Of a stretch of 48,822 bases of DNA, positions 1,127-47,758 are shown in pieces. Location of the stretch: sequence record MN153797.1, one strand, 5' to 3'. The notes below the pieces were generated by a model that made no database searches, had not been told where the DNA came from, and saw only the letters and a program-made list of their open reading frames with translations. The translations under genes and the position numbers were made by a program. The stretch is from Tunavirus T1. Within the stretch, counting starts at the first letter, position 1. Each line of letters begins with the position of its first letter.

Positions 1127-1453
1127 ATGTTTAATATCAAACCATTAACAGAAGCAGAGAAACAGGCTCAGGCCAAGCAAACCGAAAACATCCAAGTGAT
1201 CGCTGATGCGCTGATTGGTAAGAGGTCAATCAAAATAAACCTCGACACTGTTGGTCAGTCATTTTTTACTAAAGGTTTGGATAAGTACGTTATAAATGTG
1301 AAGGCGAGAGACCTGGTGGCGAGAATTCAAAAGCTAAACAATCAAAAGCTAAAGCTCATCAAGGTCGAAGGCAACATGTGCGAAATTGAGAACCTCAGCG
1401 CACCAGACCCGAATAAGTGGGAAATCACCGATGTCGAGTTTATCGTAGAATAG
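1127..1453 (+). CDS. hypothetical protein
   Basis: ORF track; AAGGAG RBS upstream of ATG. Confidence 0.5.
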   Translation: MFNIKPLTEAEKQAQAKQTENIQVIADALIGKRSIKINLDTVGQSFFTKGLDKYVINVKARDLVARIQKLNNQKLKLIKVEGNMCEIENLSAPDPNKWEITDVEFIVE

Positions 1454-1493
1454 CACTTTTTGTTAAAACCGGATCGGGGTATCTTGCTATAGT
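1451..1493 (+). promoter_or_regulatory. Box-dependent promoter: tagcactttttgtta box + TGc-TATAGT (1488-1493)
   Basis: Box centre to -10 start = 30 bp; box TAG is the stop codon of the upstream ORF; -10 lies in hairpin ggggta..tacccc. Confidence 0.55.
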
Positions 1494-2343: not shown

Positions 2344-2832
2344 ATGAAAATTAAATTACTTAGCAATGGCGGTTACAAGGGATTCACCCGCGACCTGGAA
2401 GCTGACCCTATCGTGGTTGACGCGGTTAAGTGCGACTCAAGTACTGGAGGCTACCGCGTTAAGGTTGATGACCTTGTAAAAGCTGGCGTGTACGATCTTG
2501 ATTATGGCCTGTCGGTTAGCCCGGTATTTGGCCCAGCTGACTTCAACGAGAAAGACGGAACGATGTTCTTTTTTGATTGGGAAGTGAAGGCAAACATCAA
2601 GCCGCGCAAGGTTCGTCTTCTCAGCAATGGCGGCTACCCGATGCGACCAGGTTATGAGAATCGCACGTTCCCGGTTATCGTTGACTTCATTGGGACAACT
2701 GACAACTTGGTATACGTTAGCCATGAGCAACTTAAGGCAGTTGGATTCGTTGGCGGTATGAATAAAGAAGCGCTTTGCTTCTTCCATCGATGTCCAGAGC
2801 CGATCGGTATTGAGTGCGAGTTAGTATACTAA
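2344..2832 (+). CDS. hypothetical protein with internal duplicated motif K(I/V)(K/R)LLSNGGY
   Basis: ATG 2344 in frame with ORF 2263..2832, RBS gagga; repeat seen in translation. Confidence 0.5.
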   Translation: MKIKLLSNGGYKGFTRDLEADPIVVDAVKCDSSTGGYRVKVDDLVKAGVYDLDYGLSVSPVFGPADFNEKDGTMFFFDWEVKANIKPRKVRLLSNGGYPMRPGYENRTFPVIVDFIGTTDNLVYVSHEQLKAVGFVGGMNKEALCFFHRCPEPIGIECELVY

Positions 2833-2873
2833 GCACGAATTGTTAAAAGGGGATTTGGCCTGACTGGTATAAT
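2831..2873 (+). promoter_or_regulatory. Box-dependent promoter: aagcacgaattgtta + TGg-TATAAT (2868-2873)
   Basis: Centre to -10 = 30 bp; extended -10; hairpin ggggatt..aatcccc. Confidence 0.55.
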
Positions 2874-2903
2874 CCCCACATCAACCACTAATAGGAAAGC
2901 ATC

Positions 2904-3389
2904 ATGTTAAAATTAAAAGATATTCAGTTCCCTGTAGTATTTAACACTATTAGCTGCGGTAAAATAACCTGCCACAGCAAAGATCGCGCAACAGATTCAT
3001 CATTCAATGAGTGCCACCCGTCTATTGTTGGTAATCTTATTGAGCTTCATAACAATCACAATCCTGATAACATCCCATCTCTTCCATATTATGTTGAGGG
3101 AGTCGGGCCTGGTTGGAAGGTTGGTCGCTCCATCTTCCATGCAGCAAAGCCAGAAATCAAGCCAGCGCTACAATGCACTCAGATCGAGAACATGCCATTG
3201 AGCGCGACACTAAAAGGTGTCCAACTTGATAGCGAATCCTGGATCGAGATTACCGCCACGCCTAAAACTATTGAGGTACATGATGATGTGGTGATTCTCC
3301 TGTTGCATTACGGCAGCTTTAAGCACAAGACGGTATCAGGTGAAATCAGCATTAAGCGCGGAACTCTTGTCCGCTACGAGGTGAAATAA
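2904..3389 (+). CDS. hypothetical protein
   Basis: ORF track; RBS aggaaag. Confidence 0.5.
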   Translation: MLKLKDIQFPVVFNTISCGKITCHSKDRATDSSFNECHPSIVGNLIELHNNHNPDNIPSLPYYVEGVGPGWKVGRSIFHAAKPEIKPALQCTQIENMPLSATLKGVQLDSESWIEITATPKTIEVHDDVVILLLHYGSFKHKTVSGEISIKRGTLVRYEVK

Positions 3390-3538
3390 TGACTGCATGG
3401 GTCTTGATTATCTTGATGAGCAAAGGTCCGGATCACGTATACATGGAAAGTCAACAATCATGCAACAAGGCACGGGAAGTTATCGCAGAGAACAAGCCGT
3501 TCGGATATGAAGTAAAAACTATGTGCGTTAAACGATAG
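3389..3538 (+). CDS. small hypothetical protein (49 aa)
   Basis: ATG overlaps upstream stop (taATGa); stop TAG is first triplet of the next box; below ORF-track size cutoff. Confidence 0.3.
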   Translation: MTAWVLIILMSKGPDHVYMESQQSCNKAREVIAENKPFGYEVKTMCVKR

Positions 3539-3578
3539 CACGAATTGCTAAACCTTCCGCAAGGCCATTTGATATAGT
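3536..3578 (+). promoter_or_regulatory. Box-dependent promoter: tagcacgaattgcta + TGa-TATAGT (3573-3578)
   Basis: Centre to -10 = 30 bp; hairpin aaggcca..tggcctt. Confidence 0.55.
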
Positions 3579-3618
3579 GGCCTTATTGAAGCACGACAAC
3601 CAACTGGAGGTAAAATTT

Positions 3619-3993
3619 ATGAAATTCGAATGTATCAGCGATAACACCAAAAAATTTACTGTTGGCAAAATTTACGATGTTCCGACTGAGCACGCAGAGC
3701 AAACCGTAGCTCTGACCGACGACACGGGCCGCAACCGAATTGCAACCGTAACTCACAACGGTGAAGGTCTTCGCTGGAATAGCGGCGGCACTAAGTTCGC
3801 AACGTTCGACAAGAAGCGCAAGCGCACCTTCCGCGTCAACGGCAATGTTGCAGCTAACAAGATCCATAACGTCAAGCCGTCGGAAGTTGACCGCAAGCCA
3901 GCGCTGAAGTTTAAAGAGAAGGTGGATTTATTCAATCTTGCCGCCTCGCTTGTTCTCCTGGTCGCTGCTATTTCGCTGCTTTCCATCATGTAA
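3619..3993 (+). CDS. hypothetical protein with C-terminal transmembrane anchor
   Basis: Internal ATG of ORF 3577..3993 preceded by GGAGG; hydrophobic C-terminus LAASLVLLVAAISLLSIM. Confidence 0.5.
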   Translation: MKFECISDNTKKFTVGKIYDVPTEHAEQTVALTDDTGRNRIATVTHNGEGLRWNSGGTKFATFDKKRKRTFRVNGNVAANKIHNVKPSEVDRKPALKFKEKVDLFNLAASLVLLVAAISLLSIM

Positions 3994-4141
3994 TGCTAAT
4001 GGGGAATCGACTCTGAACGGTTCCCCTATCTTTTGGAGAAAACACTATGCCAGACTTTTCTAACTGGAATAACGAGCCGCCATCATTTCAGGAGTTGCTA
4101 TTCTGCCTCCTGGTCCTGACATTATCTCTTAAGGGTGTTTT

Positions 4142-4360
4142 ATGGCTACTATCATGACAGTAGAAGATGCAGCACGCGATGCAGTGGAAGGAATGCGCCC
4201 AAATACCTCCAGAATAGCACACTACTACAAATCTGAGGTGTCGGCAGTGCAATTGGTCCACGAAATTTTAAGGCTCCCACAAGTCGATTCAGCGCGCGTT
4301 GTGACGTGCTTAAAAAATTATTTTTGCATCACTATTAAAACGAATAGCACGAATTTCTAA
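4142..4360 (+). CDS. hypothetical protein
   Basis: ORF track only; 3' end runs through the next promoter box. Confidence 0.35.
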   Translation: MATIMTVEDAARDAVEGMRPNTSRIAHYYKSEVSAVQLVHEILRLPQVDSARVVTCLKNYFCITIKTNSTNF

Positions 4361-4388
4361 AACCTATCAAGGGGAATACGCTATGATT
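4345..4388 (+). promoter_or_regulatory. Box-dependent promoter: tagcacgaatttcta + TATGAT (4383-4388)
   Basis: Centre to -10 = 31 bp. Confidence 0.45.
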
Positions 4389-4417
4389 CACCTACACCAA
4401 CAAACGAGGAAGCGATC

Positions 4418-4864
4418 ATGAAACACTTAATCTGCATTGAAGCGCCTAACGATCAATACACCCTGCATGGACTTGGTGTGTTCAAAGGTCACTACATTAC
4501 CGCAGGAACTTACGATGCTCGTCGCGGCGATGGCGACCTAATGATTACGTCAAAAGAAGTAAATCCGTACATCATGCAGAATCTTGGCAATAACGAATAT
4601 ATGGCCTATGGCTGCAACGCGGTGTACAAGCACGTTAAGATCCGCAAGCGTGTTGTGCGTGCATTCAAGAAGATTGCAATTAAATACTGGAAAATGAGCA
4701 AGAAAGATGCCGGACGTTGGGCGCGCAACGTTGCAGATTCATACTTCTATCGTAACGGCGAATCCTGCTACTTCCTGATCGATGAACTTATGGAAAACTA
4801 CGGTGGCGACTTCAGCCAGGGTAGCTTTGATGACTGGGCCAACTATGAGATCAGTTGCTGGTAA
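4418..4864 (+). CDS. hypothetical protein
   Basis: ORF track; RBS gaggaag. Confidence 0.5.
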   Translation: MKHLICIEAPNDQYTLHGLGVFKGHYITAGTYDARRGDGDLMITSKEVNPYIMQNLGNNEYMAYGCNAVYKHVKIRKRVVRAFKKIAIKYWKMSKKDAGRWARNVADSYFYRNGESCYFLIDELMENYGGDFSQGSFDDWANYEISCW

Positions 4865-4907
4865 TAGCACGAATTGCTAAAACTTGCTCAAGGGCATTTG
4901 TTAGAAT
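4865..4907 (+). promoter_or_regulatory. Box-dependent promoter: tagcacgaattgcta + TGt-TAGAAT (4902-4907)
   Basis: Centre to -10 = 30 bp; hairpin aagggcat..atgccctt. Confidence 0.55.
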
Positions 4908-4947
4908 GCCCTTCGTTGAGTTAAGCAACCAATCAGAGGAATAAATC

Positions 4948-5478
4948 ATGGATAAAATCACAATTTGGGGCCAGACAATCAACCTGTTTCTCGGCACGCG
5001 CCGAGTGGCAATCTTTGACTTTGACGGGACACTTAGCGATGGATCTGGTCGACTTCACCTGCTGCCAACAAAGGATTTGCACTTGACTGAAAGCTGGTCT
5101 GAGTTTAACCGAGCGGCAATATTTGATAACCCAATCCAGAGCACGATCGATGTGATGAACTCTATGTTTGCCGCTGGGTATCATGTGATCATTTTAACCG
5201 GGCGAAGTGATGAGGTGCGTTACGCATCTGAGTTATGGCTTAAGCATCACGGCGCTCGATATGATTACTTAGTCATGCGACCGCATACCGACAACCGCAA
5301 AGACACGGTAATGAAAGAAGAGGCAGTGCGCGCTATCGGCATTGATAACATTCTTGCGGCTTGGGATGACTCAGTGAATATAATAAAAAAATTCAGAGAT
5401 CTAGGGATAACCACATATCAGGTTTGTGAATATGCCTGTGATAGTCGAGAGGATTTAAATAGTCATGGTGTCGATTGA
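4948..5478 (+). CDS. HAD-superfamily phosphatase (possible 5'-nucleotidase / polynucleotide 3'-phosphatase)
   Basis: N-terminal motif IFDFDGTL (DxDGT signature of HAD phosphatases); RBS agaggaa. Confidence 0.6.
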   Translation: MDKITIWGQTINLFLGTRRVAIFDFDGTLSDGSGRLHLLPTKDLHLTESWSEFNRAAIFDNPIQSTIDVMNSMFAAGYHVIILTGRSDEVRYASELWLKHHGARYDYLVMRPHTDNRKDTVMKEEAVRAIGIDNILAAWDDSVNIIKKFRDLGITTYQVCEYACDSREDLNSHGVD

Positions 5479-5959
5479 TAACAAATCAATGGTAAGAGAG
5501 TTATTTACTTATTCTGACGGCGTTCTGTATTGGAAGGCCAAATCATCTAAATACAGTAGAACTAAAATAGGAGGCGCGGCAGGAAGCAAGGATAAAGACG
5601 GATACATAATAATCAGAGTAAGAAACGAAACTAGAGGCGCTCACAGGCTTGTATGGATATACCATAATGGCAAGATACCTGATGGAATGGAGGTAGACCA
5701 TATGGATGGAGACATAACAAACAATAGAATAGAAAACCTAAGATTGGTAACGAGAACCATAAATAACAGGAATCAAAAAAAGAGATCTGATAACACAACC
5801 GGAGTATCCGGTGTAACTTTCATGAAAGATAGAGGAAAGTATATGGCGCAAGTTAGAAACAAGAGACTCGGGCAGTTCGACACAATAGAAGAGGCCGCCA
5901 AAGCAGTAAAGGATGAGCGGGATAGATTAGGTTTATTCACAAAAAGACACGGGGTGTAA
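5465..5959 (+). CDS. HNH homing endonuclease
   Basis: Motifs HRLVWIYHNG..DHMDGD..NNRIENLRLV and GVSGV; start overlaps upstream stop; paralogous to 42014..42496 and 46071..46610. Confidence 0.7.
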   Translation: MVSIDNKSMVRELFTYSDGVLYWKAKSSKYSRTKIGGAAGSKDKDGYIIIRVRNETRGAHRLVWIYHNGKIPDGMEVDHMDGDITNNRIENLRLVTRTINNRNQKKRSDNTTGVSGVTFMKDRGKYMAQVRNKRLGQFDTIEEAAKAVKDERDRLGLFTKRHGV

Positions 5960-5961
5960 AC

Positions 5962-6534
5962 ATGAAAACAGCTATCATTTTAAACGGCGCACCTGGTGCG
6001 GGAAAGGACACTATCGGATGCATCCTGGCTGACACTTACGATCATGTAGCGCTACGCAGCTTCAAAGCGCCAATGTTTGAGATTGCCCGAGCAATCCTGG
6101 GTGAGACTAATTTCGAGTATTTCATGTTCTTGTATGAGGACCGTCGCTATAAAGAAGAGCCAGCGTCAATCCTGAACGGTAAAAGCCCGCGCCAGTTTAT
6201 GATCTGGATTAGCGAGGAGGTCATCAAGCCGCAGTTCGGAAATCGCTTCTTCGGTATGCGAGCGGAAAGTAAGGTGAAAGAGTCGCATTCACTTTCGGTA
6301 TTTACTGACGGTGGATTCAAAGACGAGATCTTGCAGATGATTGAAGGTGACATCCAGGTCAAGCTGTGTCGAATCCATCGCAACGGTTGCAACTTTGACA
6401 ACGACAGTCGCGACTATATCTATCTTGACGATATGATCGGGGTCAACGGTTATCAGGAGTGTGACTTCTTTTCTGTCGAAGGCCATCCAGAAATTACCGC
6501 TCAGCACATAGCCGCCACGTTCATCAATAAATAG
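5962..6534 (+). CDS. P-loop nucleotide kinase (dNMP kinase-like)
   Basis: Walker A GAPGAGKDT at N-terminus; size and layout fit small (d)NMP kinases. Confidence 0.55.
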   Translation: MKTAIILNGAPGAGKDTIGCILADTYDHVALRSFKAPMFEIARAILGETNFEYFMFLYEDRRYKEEPASILNGKSPRQFMIWISEEVIKPQFGNRFFGMRAESKVKESHSLSVFTDGGFKDEILQMIEGDIQVKLCRIHRNGCNFDNDSRDYIYLDDMIGVNGYQECDFFSVEGHPEITAQHIAATFINK

Positions 6535-6574
6535 CACGAATTGCTAAAACGTCGGTGTGGTGATTTGATATAGT
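6532..6574 (+). promoter_or_regulatory. Box-dependent promoter: tagcacgaattgcta + TGa-TATAGT (6569-6574)
   Basis: Centre to -10 = 30 bp; box TAG = stop of kinase gene. Confidence 0.55.
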
Positions 6575-6606
6575 TACCTCATCGACAACGAAGAGAGAAA
6601 ATCGAA

Positions 6607-6816
6607 ATGATGGTATCAACTGATAAGTTTTTCACTTGCACCAAAACTTCTGAGGTATTCGAGCTGGTTCATACTGACAACGGTGATTTCATGCATGACG
6701 GTTGCGACGCTTTCATTGAAGTGAAAGAAAGCGACTATGACGACGGAGTTTATTACAACCCTGCGGTTAACACGCAGTTTTTTACCCCGATCGAAGAGGA
6801 AGGAGAAGAGGCATGA
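6607..6816 (+). CDS. hypothetical protein
   Basis: ORF track. Confidence 0.45.
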   Translation: MMVSTDKFFTCTKTSEVFELVHTDNGDFMHDGCDAFIEVKESDYDDGVYYNPAVNTQFFTPIEEEGEEA

Positions 6817-39723: not shown

Positions 39724-39971
39724 TGAGCGAAAAAATGGTTCCTGTTAAATTAACTGAGCAAGGTTTATGGCTACTTTATCGAGCTACGTGCTGCGAAATT
39801 ATGGAGCGAAACGGATTGACTCAGGATGTTATTGGTTGCGATCTGTGGGAGTTCACTAGTTCTCTTGATATGTCTTTCGATGAGATAAAAAATGAATACA
39901 TAGAGAACTGGCCTTCAATCATACAGAAAGACGTGGAAGAACTTAAAGCTGATACAATCGTACAGCACTAA
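39720..39971 (+). CDS. hypothetical protein
   Basis: ATG overlaps dam stop; RBS ggtgagga. Confidence 0.45.
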   Translation: MMSEKMVPVKLTEQGLWLLYRATCCEIMERNGLTQDVIGCDLWEFTSSLDMSFDEIKNEYIENWPSIIQKDVEELKADTIVQH

Positions 39972-40005
39972 TTGCTAAAACTACCCGGCGAAAGTCGGGT
40001 ATAGT
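39963..40005 (+). promoter_or_regulatory. Box-dependent promoter: cagcactaattgcta + TATAGT (40000-40005)
   Basis: Centre to -10 = 30 bp; hairpin acccgg-cgaaagt-cgggt just upstream of -10. Confidence 0.5.
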
Positions 40006-40807: not shown

Positions 40808-41941
40808 ATGTCACAAGCTAAAATCACTACCGAGCAACTTATCGAAGAGCGCATGAGCGGCCTGACACTTCGCGAGATCGCGGAAAAGTACGGTATGCAC
40901 ATTCGCACTGTCGAGGCGCGTCACGCAAAACTTGCAAAAGAAGGCCACTTCCACGGCAACGAGCATGTTGCTAAGATGGTTCCGGAAGGCTTCATGGTAA
41001 AAGGCACGTCAACCATGATTGACGCGGAAGGTAACGAGAAGATTCGTTGGGTTAAGACATCAGTTGATAATGAGCGCCTTGAGGTTCTAATGGAAAAAGC
41101 GCGTGAAGCATTCTGTTCAGAGTTGCCTAAGGCTATTCCATCTGAATCACCTGACGTTAGTTTTGATGAAGACACGCTTGCGATGTATCCAGTTTTTGAT
41201 TTGCACATTGGTGCTCTTGCTCACAAACATGAGTGCGGCGAAAACTACGACACAGCGACAGCAGAGAAGGTTATGAATGGGTTCTTTGACTACGCTGTAG
41301 ATAAGGCGCCAAACTCAAAGAATGCCGTATTGGTATTGGGTGGCGATTTCCTACATTACGACTCTTTGGAGTCTAAGACTCCAGCGTCAGGCCATTACTT
41401 AGATTCTGACAGTCGTTACGCTAAGCTTGTTTATGTCGCAATCCGATCAGTACGACGCGCAGTCTCTCGAATGCTGGAGAAGCACCAAGTTATTGATATT
41501 AAAGCAATAAGTGGGAATCACGACGAATCAGGGATGGTTTGGTTGCGCGCTGCGCTTGCTGCATTTTATGAAGATGAGCCGCGCGTAAATGTTGATGTTA
41601 GCCCTGCCGCAATGATGATGACCAGCTTTGGTAAGACCCTTATTGGATACACTCACGGGCATCAAATGCGAAAAGCAGATACTCGACTAAGTGTTATGGC
41701 AACTGATTTTCGTAAGTTGTTTGGTCAAAGTGATTACGTTTACACGCATAGCGGTCACTGGCACAGTCAAAAGATTACAGAAACAAACTTGGGTATTGAT
41801 GAGGTTCATGGTCAGCTTGGAAGTCCTGACGCATACTCTGCCAATGGCGGTTGGAGGTCTCAGCGTCAAGCTGCTGTGATTGTCTATCACAAGGAATTTG
41901 GTGAGGTTGGACGATTCATTTGTCGACCTGAAATGTTCTAA
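40808..41941 (+). CDS. calcineurin-like metallophosphoesterase with N-terminal HTH-like segment
   Basis: Motifs LVLGGDFLHYD and ISGNHDESG; N-terminal LTLREIAEKYGMHIRTV. Confidence 0.55.
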   Translation: MSQAKITTEQLIEERMSGLTLREIAEKYGMHIRTVEARHAKLAKEGHFHGNEHVAKMVPEGFMVKGTSTMIDAEGNEKIRWVKTSVDNERLEVLMEKAREAFCSELPKAIPSESPDVSFDEDTLAMYPVFDLHIGALAHKHECGENYDTATAEKVMNGFFDYAVDKAPNSKNAVLVLGGDFLHYDSLESKTPASGHYLDSDSRYAKLVYVAIRSVRRAVSRMLEKHQVIDIKAISGNHDESGMVWLRAALAAFYEDEPRVNVDVSPAAMMMTSFGKTLIGYTHGHQMRKADTRLSVMATDFRKLFGQSDYVYTHSGHWHSQKITETNLGIDEVHGQLGSPDAYSANGGWRSQRQAAVIVYHKEFGEVGRFICRPEMF

Positions 41942-42013: not shown

Positions 42014-42496
42014 ATGAACTGGCACGAGCATTACGAATATAGGGATGGTGTTCTATATCACAAGGTAAAGCCATGCAGAAGGCATGATGTAAATATTGGG
42101 GATGTTGCTGGAAGGGTTGCCAAAAACGGCTATCACTATGTTGTTCACAAGAACAGGCCGTATAAGAGATCTCGAGTTATATGGGAGATGTTTAATGGTG
42201 AGATACCAGATGGTTTTGTTATAGATCATCTGAATCACAATGCCACCGATGATAGGATCGATAACCTTGAGTGTAAGCCAAGAAGAGAGAATATGGTTAA
42301 TGTTAAGTTAAGGATTGATAGCACGACCGGAGTAACTGGCGTATCAAGAAAGAGGGATAACAAGTGGAGGGCGTACATAACAATTATGGGTAAGCAGAAG
42401 TGCAAGAGCTTTGACACGTTTGAGGAAGCTTGCGCGCAGAGGATTGAATGGTCAGTAACTCATGATTTTCACCCAAATCACGGTGGAACATACTAA
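42014..42496 (+). CDS. HNH homing endonuclease
   Basis: GVLYHK..DHLNHNATDDRIDNL..GVTGVS motifs; paralog of 5465..5959. Confidence 0.7.
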   Translation: MNWHEHYEYRDGVLYHKVKPCRRHDVNIGDVAGRVAKNGYHYVVHKNRPYKRSRVIWEMFNGEIPDGFVIDHLNHNATDDRIDNLECKPRRENMVNVKLRIDSTTGVTGVSRKRDNKWRAYITIMGKQKCKSFDTFEEACAQRIEWSVTHDFHPNHGGTY

Positions 42497-42539
42497 TAGC
42501 ACCTTTTACCTAACCCGCGCCACAGAAGTGCGGCATAGT
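42497..42539 (+). promoter_or_regulatory. Box-dependent promoter (degenerate box tagcaccttttacct) + CATAGT (42534-42539)
   Basis: Centre to -10 = 30 bp. Confidence 0.4.
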
Positions 42540-44502: not shown

Positions 44503-46071
44503 TTAACCCATCAGTCGAGGATTGATGAAAACAATATCATCAATCCGGCAAGTGTAGTTCATCTCTTCGAGCGTGATCAGCAGGCTGTCGATTCGCTCAG
44601 CTACTTTTTGTTGACCGTTGAACGGCGTAACGTTACGGCACTTTGCAACAATGCTATGAATAGGTGCGCGACCTTTGTTCTTCTTTGCGATCTCAGTGAT
44701 AACATCAATCAGCTTACGAGATTCAGCCTCATCACCAGCATACCCGGCGGCGCTGGCAGACGACAGATAGGTTCTGGAAAGCTCATTGAAAATCATGATC
44801 GCTTCCTGCATTGTTTCAAGGTCAATCTCACGGTTGGAACGGTTCGGTGATTCACCCTCCCAGTTCTTGATTGTGTGAAGAACTGAAGCAATGCGCAAAG
44901 CGTGCTTATCGAACTTGCCGAGATGACCGCGTAGCATTGAGTGAGAGTATTTGCCCCCGGCTGCGAAATCCGGCTCCATAGCCTGGCGAGCAAGGTTTAA
45001 TTCACGCATAGCATTACGGCTTACAGAGAGAACAACGTTGTCCTCCTTCATAATGTTGTGCACAAGTCGATAATATTTACTCACCAATCCTCGATCGACT
45101 TCCTTATACAGTGCATCACCATTTTCATCGCAAAGAATACGAGTGCCTAAAAGAGGTTCCTCGCGAACCAATAGGAAACGCTCAGATACACCGATACCGC
45201 GCTGGCCTGCGTCCATGATACCCTTGATTGTTTCATCCTGCGCAATGACGCAGATCGAACCGACCGGGCAAAGAGATAAGTTATTGTCCTGATTTGAACG
45301 CGCAACCTCCATATGGTTTTTATCCCACGCCTTGAGGATAAGCTCGCTGTTTGATTTCTTATCAGAACCGCCATAAGTCAGGCCAAGCAATGTATTTATT
45401 GCCGTTGCCTCATCAGAGATTACGGAAAAGTGGCCTTGAACAGCAGCTACTTTCGCAAGACCTTCCGGTGTAGGATCTGATACCGCGAAAACAATATCAG
45501 CCATCTTCTTGATCTTCTCTTCCAGTTTTTCCTTGTCCTCGTACAGCGCCGCCGTCGTGTTACCCTTCGGATCGTTTTTGATTTCCTTCTCGATCTGACG
45601 TAGCTGACTGGTTAAACGGATACGTTCCTTTTTGCGCTCTTCATTCAGTCTCTGAATCTCTGCGCGCATAGGTGTAATCGCCGCTGAGTTAATCGCGGAT
45701 TTACCTGTTGATGGTGGCTGGCTAATCACCATATAAAGAGCGGTCGGTTGTTCTTCTCCGTGATATTGCACCCAAAACTTCCCTAGCATCGCGGCTGAGA
45801 TGCACCCAATGAAATGAGCGTACGCAGACGAAACAGGAAACTGTACAGACTCAGCTTTTGCTTTTGCATATTCGAATACCAGGTTATCGCCACCTAACGA
45901 AATCAGCGGGAACTTATCGTTTCCACTGTTGATATCGATCGGGTCTTGCCAAAACGAAACTGAATCCCCGTAGCTGTTTTCACGAATTGCGATCGCCACC
46001 GGATTAACTCCAGTGCTATTTGCGATCTCAATAATCTGTTGGTAATTCAGTTTTGGCTTAATATTAAACAT
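44503..46071 (-). CDS. P-loop ATPase, putative replication protein
   Basis: Walker A-like PPSTGKS; probable start MFNIKP with RBS aaggag, overlapping HNH stop (TGATG); ORF-track 5' extension covers the promoter. Confidence 0.5.
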   Translation of the reverse strand: MFNIKPKLNYQQIIEIANSTGVNPVAIAIRENSYGDSVSFWQDPIDINSGNDKFPLISLGGDNLVFEYAKAKAESVQFPVSSAYAHFIGCISAAMLGKFWVQYHGEEQPTALYMVISQPPSTGKSAINSAAITPMRAEIQRLNEERKKERIRLTSQLRQIEKEIKNDPKGNTTAALYEDKEKLEEKIKKMADIVFAVSDPTPEGLAKVAAVQGHFSVISDEATAINTLLGLTYGGSDKKSNSELILKAWDKNHMEVARSNQDNNLSLCPVGSICVIAQDETIKGIMDAGQRGIGVSERFLLVREEPLLGTRILCDENGDALYKEVDRGLVSKYYRLVHNIMKEDNVVLSVSRNAMRELNLARQAMEPDFAAGGKYSHSMLRGHLGKFDKHALRIASVLHTIKNWEGESPNRSNREIDLETMQEAIMIFNELSRTYLSSASAAGYAGDEAESRKLIDVITEIAKKNKGRAPIHSIVAKCRNVTPFNGQQKVAERIDSLLITLEEMNYTCRIDDIVFINPRLMG

Positions 46072-46610
46072 CACAATAAACTCCTTAGTTGACGGCGTGA
46101 ATGATACACCGTCAATGGTACACGCGTTTTGCAAAAAGTGCTATTCGATCCGTGATTCTCATGAAAACCGTATAGCCTTTCCGCTTCCTTACTTGCTTTA
46201 GCCGCTGCATCCAGCGTCATGAAGGTCCCTAAGTGTTTTGTCTTTTTATTTATGGTTATGTTTGCCGTGTATCTATTTGTTTTTTTATTCCAATACACTC
46301 CCATAACTCCTGTGTTTGATGACACTACTCCCTTGTTTCTTAGGTTGTCTTGCCTAGTTACTAGCCTGAGATTCTCAATTCTGTTATCGTCTCTTTCATG
46401 GTTTATGTGGTCTACATCCATTCCTTCTGGTATGTTTCCGTAGTGTATTTTCCATACTATTCGATGGGCGTATTCAAATACACCTCCTGGAAAACATATT
46501 GACCGATAACCTTTTTTATTAACAGTTCCGGCAAGTAGATTTCGTCTTCTTCCGATTCTCCACTCTTTCCAGTACAGTCTCCCGCTAACGTATTTCAGTT
46601 CATCTTTCAT
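46071..46610 (-). CDS. HNH homing endonuclease
   Basis: AHRIVWKIHYGNIPEGMDVDHINHERDDNRIENLRLV, GVMGVY; 3' end reads through promoter box 46129-46143. Confidence 0.7.
   Translation of the reverse strand: MKDELKYVSGRLYWKEWRIGRRRNLLAGTVNKKGYRSICFPGGVFEYAHRIVWKIHYGNIPEGMDVDHINHERDDNRIENLRLVTRQDNLRNKGVVSSNTGVMGVYWNKKTNRYTANITINKKTKHLGTFMTLDAAAKASKEAERLYGFHENHGSNSTFCKTRVPLTVYHSRRQLRSLL
46101..46143 (-). promoter_or_regulatory. Box-dependent promoter (minus): tagcactttttgcaa + TATCAT (46106-46101)
   Basis: Centre to -10 = 30 bp; lies inside the 3' end of the HNH ORF. Confidence 0.5.
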
Positions 46611-47023
46611 AAGTATTTACTCTCAAAGGTTGTGCCGTCTGCGATACTAAAACCAACCTCTTCGCGGAATAAGGTCCAGCGGCAACCGTCCTCATCAAAG
46701 ATGTAACCAGCCACGCCTCCAAGAGCGCGACCGCTTTCTACCTGGTAACGCTTTCCAACCTTGAATGATTTTTTCATTGGGTTGCGATGGTCAAGTCCGG
46801 TGCACTTGAGCGTCTTTGTTTTCAACTCGGTGAACTTCGCGAAGAAGATTTCATCAGATCCGTGAATATGTAATTCATCATGCTTTTCAAGTTTTAAATA
46901 CTTCCCGCATTTTAACTTTACTTCACGAGTATCATCATAGCGCTCACGACCTTTGTACAGATTGTTTACTTCGAATCCTGTGATTTTGTCTGCGGAAGTG
47001 CATTTAAGTTTGATTGATTTCAT
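46607..47023 (-). CDS. hypothetical protein
   Basis: ORF track; RBS caggag. Confidence 0.45.
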   Translation of the reverse strand: MKSIKLKCTSADKITGFEVNNLYKGRERYDDTREVKLKCGKYLKLEKHDELHIHGSDEIFFAKFTELKTKTLKCTGLDHRNPMKKSFKVGKRYQVESGRALGGVAGYIFDEDGCRWTLFREEVGFSIADGTTFESKYL

Positions 47024-47059
47024 TGTGTTCGCTCCTGATTGGTTATCTTGAATAAGGCC

Positions 47060-47102
47060 ACTTTATCAAATGACCTTACGGCAATATTAACAAATCGTGC
47101 TA
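47060..47102 (-). promoter_or_regulatory. Box-dependent promoter (minus): tagcacgatttgtta + TGa-TAAAGT (47065-47060)
   Basis: Centre to -10 = 30 bp. Confidence 0.5.
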
Positions 47103-47103
47103 T

Positions 47104-47313
47104 TTACCAGGGAATATAATCGTCAACGTCCTCATTAATATCATCACCGGGTAACTCAAAGTTAGGATCGTATTCGCTTTCAGCATCCATATCCATATCA
47201 CCAAGAGCCTCGTCAAGTGTGATTTCTTTATATGCTACCTTGATGCACCATTCGGAACTAAGTCCGGCATCAAGCGCTGCAAAATAACGAGTCCAGAAAT
47301 TATCTTGTTCCAT
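47104..47313 (-). CDS. small acidic protein with C-terminus ..DDYIPW
   Basis: 69 aa; C-terminal third is mostly Asp/Glu and ends in an aromatic residue. Confidence 0.45.
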   Translation of the reverse strand: MEQDNFWTRYFAALDAGLSSEWCIKVAYKEITLDEALGDMDMDAESEYDPNFELPGDDINEDVDDYIPW

Positions 47314-47541: not shown

Positions 47542-47574
47542 TTTTGATTCCTTTGTTTTGTTTGGTATGGGAGT

Positions 47575-47618
47575 AATATACCTTACTCCCCGATGTGTGT
47601 CTTTAGCAATTTGTGCTA
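47575..47618 (-). promoter_or_regulatory. Box-dependent promoter (minus): tagcacaaattgcta + TATATT (47580-47575)
   Basis: Centre to -10 = 31 bp; hairpin gggagta..tactccc. Confidence 0.5.
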
Positions 47619-47758
47619 TCAGCACTCAGAAATTACTTTACACTCTTTGATCGTGCCGCCGAGAACTACCTTTTGCATCATTGCTTTTTGGCGACTATCG
47701 TAAACGCGAACATTTTTTACGCTGTTAAACTTTCCTGTATAGAAAGTGTGAACATAAA

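Follow-up and report, generated by a model that had tools for sequence, protein, structure and literature searches.

A predicted homing-type HNH endonuclease gene of phage T1 reads through the spacer of its insertion site

The window, the whole 48,822-nucleotide stretch of Tunavirus T1 DNA analysed (record MN153797.1), carries three open reading frames for HNH endonucleases, HNH1, HNH2 and HNH3 (Table 1), all present where the initial annotation had placed them. That annotation gave no strand for HNH3, which lies on the minus strand between a small conserved hypothetical gene and a conserved DUF3987 gene (Pfam E 2.5e-42). The HNH3 ATG is found within TTATGA, overlapping the stop codon of the upstream gene, and its TGA (46071-46073) has one base in common with the ATG of the DUF3987 gene (46069-46071) in the sequence TGATG, as the announced overlap with the ATPase start required. 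HNH1 shares 14 nt with the gene before it, and 2 nt separate its end from the ATG that follows. The T1 record describes CPTT1_072 (HNH3) as "HNH endonuclease ... similar to phage T7 protein 3.8", CPTT1_071 as "putative ATPase" and CPTT1_073 as "hypothetical protein". Positions 45500-47100 are 99.9% identical to T1 records AY216660, NC_005833 and MK213796 in megablast; coordinates of the window equal those of the T1 record at 4700-6700 and are 14 lower from 41200 on. The three HNH genes are already known, since both the GenBank and the RefSeq records of T1 annotate them and the 2004 genome paper reportedly counted them, and their behaviour is ordinary for the family.

Table 1. Coordinates of the HNH genes, their neighbours and the associated repeat and control elements in the window
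Feature	Position	Strand	Remarks
HNH1, 164 aa	5465..5959	+	Between polynucleotide kinase/phosphatase and dNMP kinase genes
HNH2 upstream box ATAGCACCTTTTGTTAAAA	41942..41960	+	Followed by hairpin, TATTAT and RBS
HNH2, 160 aa	42014..42496	+	Between exonuclease gene and small SH3-like gene of lysis module
Resident degenerate box ATAGCACCTTTTACCTAAC	42496..42514	+	First base is last base of HNH2 stop codon
DUF3987 gene, downstream of HNH3, conserved	44503..46071	-	Annotated putative ATPase or DNA helicase
HNH3 ORF, 179 aa	46071..46610	-	T1 CPTT1_072
HNH3 C-terminal tail SNSTFCKTRVPLTVYHSRRQLRSLL	46074..46148	-	Codons 2-25 are the former spacer between gp73 and ATPase genes; first codon (TCG) is last of insert
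ATPase ribosome-binding site AAGGAG	46081..46086	-	Inside HNH3 tail
9-bp inverted repeat TTGACGGTG / CGCCGTCAA	46089..46115	-	46107-46115 with 46089-46097; encloses -10-like hexamer
-10-like hexamer TATCAT	46101..46106	-	19 nt past box, spacing as at 14 other boxes
Drexlerviridae 19/21-nt direct repeat (box) ATAGCACTTTTTGCAAAAC	46126..46144	-	2 mismatches to ATAGCACnnnTTGnTAAAA
HNH3 family-homologous body	46149..46610	-	Residues 1-154, ending ...GFHENHG; essentially the insert
Upstream gene of HNH3, conserved, hypothetical	46607..47023	-	CPTT1_073

Pfam confirms the assignment of the three products to the HNH_3 family (PF13392), with 77.5, 78.9 and 68.7 bits against a curated cut-off of 24.8 (E values from 3e-19 to 2e-22; 5.7e-22 for HNH3), and all three belong to phrog_99 (E <= 1e-53). 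Scores for the AP2 profile (PF00847) are 28.2, 21.3 and 18.6 bits, all below its curated cut-off of 33.3. A fourth HNH copy is not found in the window by tblastn. The residue pattern initially described as common to the three holds overall, except that HNH2 has SRVIW for HR(L/I)VW and IDNLE for IENL(R/E). Sixty aligned homologues, the three T1 copies among them, all have D67, H68, N80, N89 and N92. The AlphaFold model of HNH3 built on this alignment (mean pLDDT 87, residues 1-155 confident) has a beta-beta-alpha HNH core made of strands 64-68 and 81-85 and helix 86-91, followed by an AP2-type domain with strands 105-108, 113-120 and 123-130 and helix 133-146. Foldseek against the PDB gives I-HmuI (1U3E) as best hit (E 4e-4, probability 1.00), which is also the single match of a sequence search against the PDB (E 1e-3), and the carboxyl-terminal sheet and helix superpose on plant AP2 domains of TEM1 and AtERF1 (probability 0.99-1.00, rmsd 1.3-2.1 Å). 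HNH3 is thus most likely the gene of a free-standing homing-type HNH endonuclease, predicted to combine an I-HmuI-like catalytic domain with an AP2-type DNA-binding domain.

Comparison of the three loci between phages reveals for each HNH gene clean junctions and absence from the majority of Tunavirus relatives, and the three are not conserved at identical positions in distant relatives. Among the listed matches, the T1-type HNH3 occurs only in T1 and JMPW2. Of the 40 listed records, 33 have an empty third site; they represent at least 25 different Tunavirus phages, in which the locus spans 1142 bp versus 1601 bp in T1 and the two neighbouring genes are separated by a 76-bp spacer; the one exception in length among the listed records is Sfin-2, with an empty span of 1139 bp. 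Eco_BIFF and Lg3 have a different HNH gene, whose product is 43% identical to HNH3, inserted at exactly the same site. HNH1 is restricted to T1, JMPW2 and Eco_BIFF among 119 matching records, its place being taken in Shigella phage SH6 by a 108-bp spacer. HNH2 is confined to T1 and JMPW2, apart from an 80%-identical copy that AugustePiccard, a phage of another subfamily (Braunvirinae), carries at this locus; SH6 and others lack it. The 2026 KanT1 paper mentions "occasional repositioning of HNH nucleases" between T1 and its relatives, and counts an HNH gene at the lysis locus in 25 of 522 Drexlerviridae, sporadically distributed.

Alignment of T1 with SH6 defines the third insertion at base level as a clean indel in flanks that are 94-98% identical. 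The insert of ~463 bp (46146-46608, net +459) stands in place of AACC; on one side it joins the upstream gene at the ATGA where stop and start codons overlap, and on the other it directly abuts the 5' side of the conserved repeat. The GC content of the HNH3 body is 39.8%, within the 39.8-42% of the HNH bodies, as compared to 45.5% for the genome. Hardly any co-conversion tract accompanies the T1 junction, the only trace being one changed 3-nt codon (AGT versus GCC) 12 nt upstream. We privilege the hypothesis, which these comparisons make likely, that HNH3 was laterally inserted in the T1/JMPW2 lineage between the small conserved gene and the DUF3987 ATPase gene.

The carboxyl terminus of HNH3 bears the mark of this event. 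In the empty allele of SH6 the upstream gene ends with ...AAATACTTATAA, followed by CC and then by AATAGCACTTTTTGTAAAACGCGTGTACCATTGGCGGTGTATCATTCACACCGTCAACTAAGGAGTTTATTGTGATG; the T1 spacer is the SH6 spacer with 3 substitutions, preceded by ...GGTTTTCATGAGAATCACGGATCG. The alignment identifies the HNH3 tail as this former spacer, which bears out the initial proposal that the insertion took over intergenic sequence, and the repeat at 46129-46143 that the 3' end of the ORF was said to cross does lie inside the tail. The two T1 paralogues terminate 1-3 residues past the conserved NHG motif, and alignments of HNH3 to them and to 78 IMG/VR relatives end at about residue 154. HNH3 extends 25 residues past the motif; among the 60 aligned homologues the remaining 59 reach 0-11 residues beyond it, mostly 1-4. 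Read at the nucleotide level, the cassette has no stop codon of its own, and its predicted translation continues in frame through the old spacer up to the TGA of TGATG, adding 25 residues. At this locus the T1 box reads TTGCAAAAC and offers neither TAA nor TGA, so that translation would read on and the extension appears as an accident of the reading frame. Sequencing error or misannotation as its source was rejected, since the three T1 records, JMPW2 and the window give one and the same frame; the T1 reference and JMPW2 are identical across the read-through region, and the only substitution between the window and the T1 reference in the 601 nt compared, at 46191 (S versus R), falls inside the HNH3 body. 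A tail shared with Salmonella phages Skate and PJN025 was also discarded: these tblastn matches are run-ons at unrelated loci, where the annotated ORFs end earlier.

A function for the tail is improbable. No stop codon interrupts the SH6 spacer in the frame used by T1 HNH3, so the extension required no adaptation, and about 30% of random 25-codon stretches would stay open ((61/64)^25). That the tail or the TGATG overlap has been selected, as an extra basic DNA-binding arm or to make ATPase translation depend on that of the HNH gene, appears highly improbable to us. The tail is indeed basic (4 R, 1 K and 1 H), the overlap of stop and start codons is exact and the read-through is identical in T1 and JMPW2, but the frame was open before the insertion, the Eco_BIFF protein and the homologue of the metagenomic ERZ phage described below stop after 5-6 residues, and the tail is predicted to be disordered, residues 158-171 having pLDDT below 50. 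Furthermore, of the T1 substitutions one hits the variable position of the box and two fall in the stem without breaking its pairing, and none affects a position important to coding.

The conserved repeat inside the tail, initially called a promoter box, is more frequent in the window than chance predicts. Allowing up to 3 mismatches, the window contains 15 matches to its 15-mer TAGCACTTTTTGCAA (46129-46143, minus strand) for 2.4 expected, and 24 to the 19-mer ATAGCACnnnTTGnTAAAA for 1.8 expected. At 15 of these 24 boxes a TATNNT-type hexamer follows at a distance of exactly 19 nt, or 22 nt counted from TTGnTA. The copy at the HNH3 locus is oriented with the ATPase gene and begins at 46144, ~75 nt before its start codon at 46071. 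The promoter role itself is predicted: a sigma-70 and terminator scan of 45800-47300 gives no canonical promoter at the box, no canonical -35 element and no minus-strand terminator, so that the element would be a non-canonical promoter or not a promoter. What stands of the initial designation is a conserved repeat with a -10-like hexamer at fixed distance. A literature search with the exact 12-mer of the box returned unrelated papers only. The 3 spacer substitutions of T1 spare the conserved box positions, the hexamer and the ribosome-binding site, which are as in the empty alleles, and the two in the stem preserve pairing. The ATPase gene is thus expected to retain its expression signals, its presumed control region being intact despite the insertion. 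Genes of T1 generally often end right at a box.

Homologues more distant than JMPW2 inform on the history of the locus. A large protein search uncovered two 160-residue relatives of HNH3, 77% and 74% identical, between the same two flanking genes in T1-like metagenome contigs (hereafter the ERZ and SRR relatives), whose ATPase and upstream genes are 81-84% and 60-67% identical to those of T1, respectively. The presence of such related HNH genes at the same place amid diverged flanks suggests that this HNH lineage has long been tied to the locus. The initial description of the insertion as recent is thus appropriate for the transfer into the T1/JMPW2 lineage and not for the residence of the HNH lineage, which is old. 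No protein above 77% identity is found outside T1/JMPW2 in IMG/VR and in a set of 5.8 billion proteins as donor of the T1-type gene.

The junctions of these copies differ in how the reading frame is closed. The ERZ ORF enters a canonical box and stops at the box TAA (...AAT AGC ACT TAT TGC TAA), and the Eco_BIFF HNH gene stops at a TGA at the variable position of the box. The last 24 nt of the Eco_BIFF gene are identical to T1 in spite of ~50% identity just upstream, and in this phage an 80-90-nt divergent tract lies in the upstream gene, the end of which is changed to ...CFEGLYS, the form of HNH-carrying lineages; the identical end and the converted upstream gene point to recombinational exchange of the cassette. 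In the SRR relative, 13 nt (AG TAT TCC TAA CC) are kept between the HNH gene and the box. This short stretch repeats how the upstream gene of the SRR relative ends (TAT TCA TGA) and corresponds to the TAACC+box junction of the empty allele. This remnant argues that the empty arrangement is ancestral and that the remnant-free junction of T1, Eco_BIFF and ERZ is derived.

The opposite polarity, an HNH gene ancestral to Tunavirus at the ATPase locus, lost in most members and retained by T1, has to be weighed against these junctions. Identity between the T1, ERZ and SRR HNH proteins (74-77%) does track that of the flanking genes (60-84%) and would also fit a long vertical residence. However, all listed empty alleles have the same span, with the small deviation of Sfin-2, and none has an HNH remnant; the TAACC+box junction exists downstream of the SRR gene as well and hence predates the remnant-free junction; and the flanks of T1 and of empty alleles are nearly identical, yet the two HNH types at the site share just 43% identity. 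We hold ancestral presence followed by loss to be unlikely and retain lateral insertion of HNH3.

The HNH1 and HNH2 proteins are 45% and 37% identical to HNH3, and mutual identities of the three lie between 37 and 45%. The initial annotation termed them paralogous, which holds in the sense of a single family and fails in the sense of duplicates made within T1, since each has nearer relatives among the HNH genes of other phages than in its two companions. The sequence relationships therefore identify the three genes as separate acquisitions, not as duplications inside T1. HNH1 and HNH2 are likely to be independent members of the same family with the same homing-type behaviour at two other loci, an assessment we extend to this explanation as a whole.

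The box found upstream of HNH2 (41942) exists only in HNH2-carrying genomes, which assigns it to the HNH2 cassette; it shares its first 12 nt with the box downstream (42496). A possible role of the Drexlerviridae box and hairpin modules as joints for exchange of HNH cassettes between phages could be envisaged from the ATPase-locus HNH lineage, which, lacking its own stop codon, uses the TGnTAA of the box, and from the bracketing of HNH2 by boxes. Adjacency of HNH genes and boxes is no general rule: the HNH homologues in DTL and in another T1-like contig have no box nearby. These cases, together with the habit of T1 genes to end at boxes, leave the joint hypothesis very doubtful. If true, boxes would act like the promoter/stem-loop cassettes proposed for modular shuffling in T4-type phages, or could alternatively form part of the endonuclease target sites.

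Knowledge of free-standing homing endonucleases suggests how HNH3 may spread. Translation of the gene would be weak and coupled to that of its upstream neighbour. In a mixed infection the HNH3 product would nick or cut the HNH-less allele of a related phage near the spacer, and repair of the cut allele by recombination would copy HNH3 into it. T1 reportedly has its own recombination genes, according to the abstract of its genome paper. Copies of the same lineage at the same locus of diverged genomes are known for HNH3 (ERZ and SRR relatives) and for HNH2 (AugustePiccard).

The original T1 genome paper (2004) is said to have suggested host-DNA degradation for "three endonucleases". A related possibility, that the T1 HNH enzymes are domesticated phage functions serving host-DNA degradation or the exclusion of competing phages rather than selfish homing genes, would account for the intact catalytic residues of all three and for the maintenance of three genes in T1, as well as for the box, -10 element and ribosome-binding site of HNH2, from which it is predicted to be expressed as first gene of its unit. 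Nevertheless, most of the viable Tunavirus phages closely related to T1 lack any given one of the HNH genes, which makes each of them dispensable for the lytic cycle; their distribution is sporadic, as counted at the lysis locus in the KanT1 paper, and HNH lineages are site-specific. Domestication is therefore improbable, and homing-type behaviour is the interpretation that we favour.

These observations matter little beyond annotation, the biology of free-standing homing endonucleases being ordinary and the phage known. What is new amounts to minor details, namely a borrowed stop codon, junctions at base level and the long-standing tie between an HNH lineage and its locus. HNH3 provides a documented example of a mobile endonuclease gene without its own terminator codon, and users of its carboxyl terminus should be cautious, as the gene ends wherever the host spacer allows. 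The base-level sequences of empty sites can be used as substrates in cleavage assays. The 24 intergenic boxes of T1, with their fixed geometry, -10-like hexamer and site-specific hairpin, are the more interesting collateral lead.

The T1 box corresponds to a 21-nt repeat, aaATAGCACnnnTTGnTAAAA, described for phage TLS and stated to occur also in T1 (PMC11447400). Its function was left open there between a stoperator, an enhancer site and an UP-like element, and the section of that paper on the repeat does not mention the fixed 19-nt distance to a hexamer or the site-specific hairpin seen in T1.

Among homing systems, the T1 HNH genes resemble the free-standing seg and mob genes of T4-like phages in their location between conserved genes, their presence or absence in relatives and their tight overlaps with neighbours, and in the divergent tract beside the Eco_BIFF copy, which is consistent with co-conversion. 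The seg genes code for GIY-YIG enzymes and the mob genes for HNH enzymes; T1 differs from the former in having HNH proteins. I-HmuI of Bacillus phage SPO1 is an intron-encoded enzyme that nicks one strand and has a helix-turn-helix carboxyl-terminal DNA-binding domain. T1 HNH proteins share with it an amino-terminal beta region and the DH...N...N beta-beta-alpha-metal core, but sequence identity is 23% and the T1 proteins are free-standing and have an AP2-type domain. The closest counterparts are the phage HNH-AP2 endonucleases (HNH_3 plus AP2; phrog_99), with hundreds of homologues at 40-56% identity, many of them annotated as homing endonucleases. Their two-domain architecture and size are identical to those of the T1 proteins, and the sole difference is the 25-residue spacer-derived tail of the T1/JMPW2 copy.

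The predicted promoter boxes of T1, a 19/21-nt direct repeat of Drexlerviridae found in 24 copies in the window at up to 3 mismatches, carry a -10-like hexamer at a fixed 19 nt past the box ATAGCACnnnTTGnTAAAA in 15 of the 24 sites. Most boxes are also followed by a 7-10-bp inverted repeat in the 48 nt past each box (examples in the table below), whose arms vary between sites. The repeat encloses the hexamer except at boxes 39962 and 41942, where an inverted repeat with a GAAA loop lies ahead of it. Fold energies of the post-box segments have a mean z of -2.3, with z < -2 at 12/24 sites. At the site of HNH3 (ORF 46071-46610, minus strand) all 45 of 45 pair cells are paired across 5 phages, one pair occurring as GC, UA or UG. 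The repeat section of the reannotation of phage TLS (PMC11447400) makes no mention of this element. Its candidate roles are a DNA cruciform, an RNA processing site or a stabiliser.

Example sites of the box and of the inverted-repeat region that follows it
Feature	Position	Strand	Remark
Box	1450-1468	+	one of 24 sites
Box	3535-3553	+	one of 24 sites
Box	4864-4882	+	one of 24 sites
Box	6531-6549	+	one of 24 sites
Box	39962-39980	+	one of 24 sites
Box	47085-47103	-	one of 24 sites
Box	47601-47619	-	one of 24 sites
Post-box inverted-repeat region	3554-3601	+	48 nt past box
Post-box inverted-repeat region	4883-4930	+	48 nt past box
Post-box inverted-repeat region	6550-6597	+	48 nt past box
Post-box inverted-repeat region	47553-47600	-	48 nt past box

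Phage Eco_BIFF (NC_047996; segment L003) has another HNH gene at the HNH3 site. Adjoining this gene, the 3' end of the conserved upstream gene holds a tract of low identity (~70%, 80-90 nt; L003 2600-2700), the equivalent of window 46604-46694, within flanks that are 94-98% identical. The tract alters the end of the upstream protein to ...CFEGLYS, as found in distant HNH-carrying phages, and looks like a co-conversion tract. RefSeq begins the Eco_BIFF "DNA helicase" (L003 504-2135) at an upstream TTG, 63 nt earlier than the ATG with an AAGGAG ribosome-binding site used in T1 and SH6. The annotated TTG, which overlaps the HNH gene, falls within the box/hairpin region; the ATG is the likelier start. 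In Shigella phage SH6 the exonuclease ORF enters a box and terminates at a TAA formed by the variable box bases, ATCGCACTAATTG (SH6 segment L008, 1930-2000), so that ending inside a box is not unique to HNH genes.

HNH2 (42014-42496, plus strand) marks a mosaic boundary between window 41200-41941, the 3' part of the exonuclease gene, and 42532 onward. Upstream of it T1 is ~88% identical to Rtp-like phages and SH6-type Tunavirus phages are unmatched at megablast level, while downstream, over the SH3-like gene and the holin, Tunavirus phages match T1 at 94-97%. The window (48822 bp) differs from the T1 records (48836 bp) by a net 14 bp, located somewhere within 6700-41200. In HNH3 it has T at 46191 versus G in T1 and its relative JMPW2, giving Ser versus Arg.

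The three variable bases of the T1 window boxes sort them into subtypes, also known from TLS (PMC11447400), which may be temporal classes. GAA-type boxes are grouped at 2830-6549 (plus strand), plus 34888; TTT-type boxes lie at 102, 1450, 2269, 15068, 18832, 36430, 38939 and 46126. Among the 24 window boxes, those with a -10-like hexamer lack a canonical -35: TTGnTA stands 22 nt upstream of the hexamer, ~5 bp too far. Centred near -42, the TAGCA-N5-TGCTA core of the box is almost palindromic. In this layout the sites are more like activator-dependent promoters than plain sigma-70 promoters.
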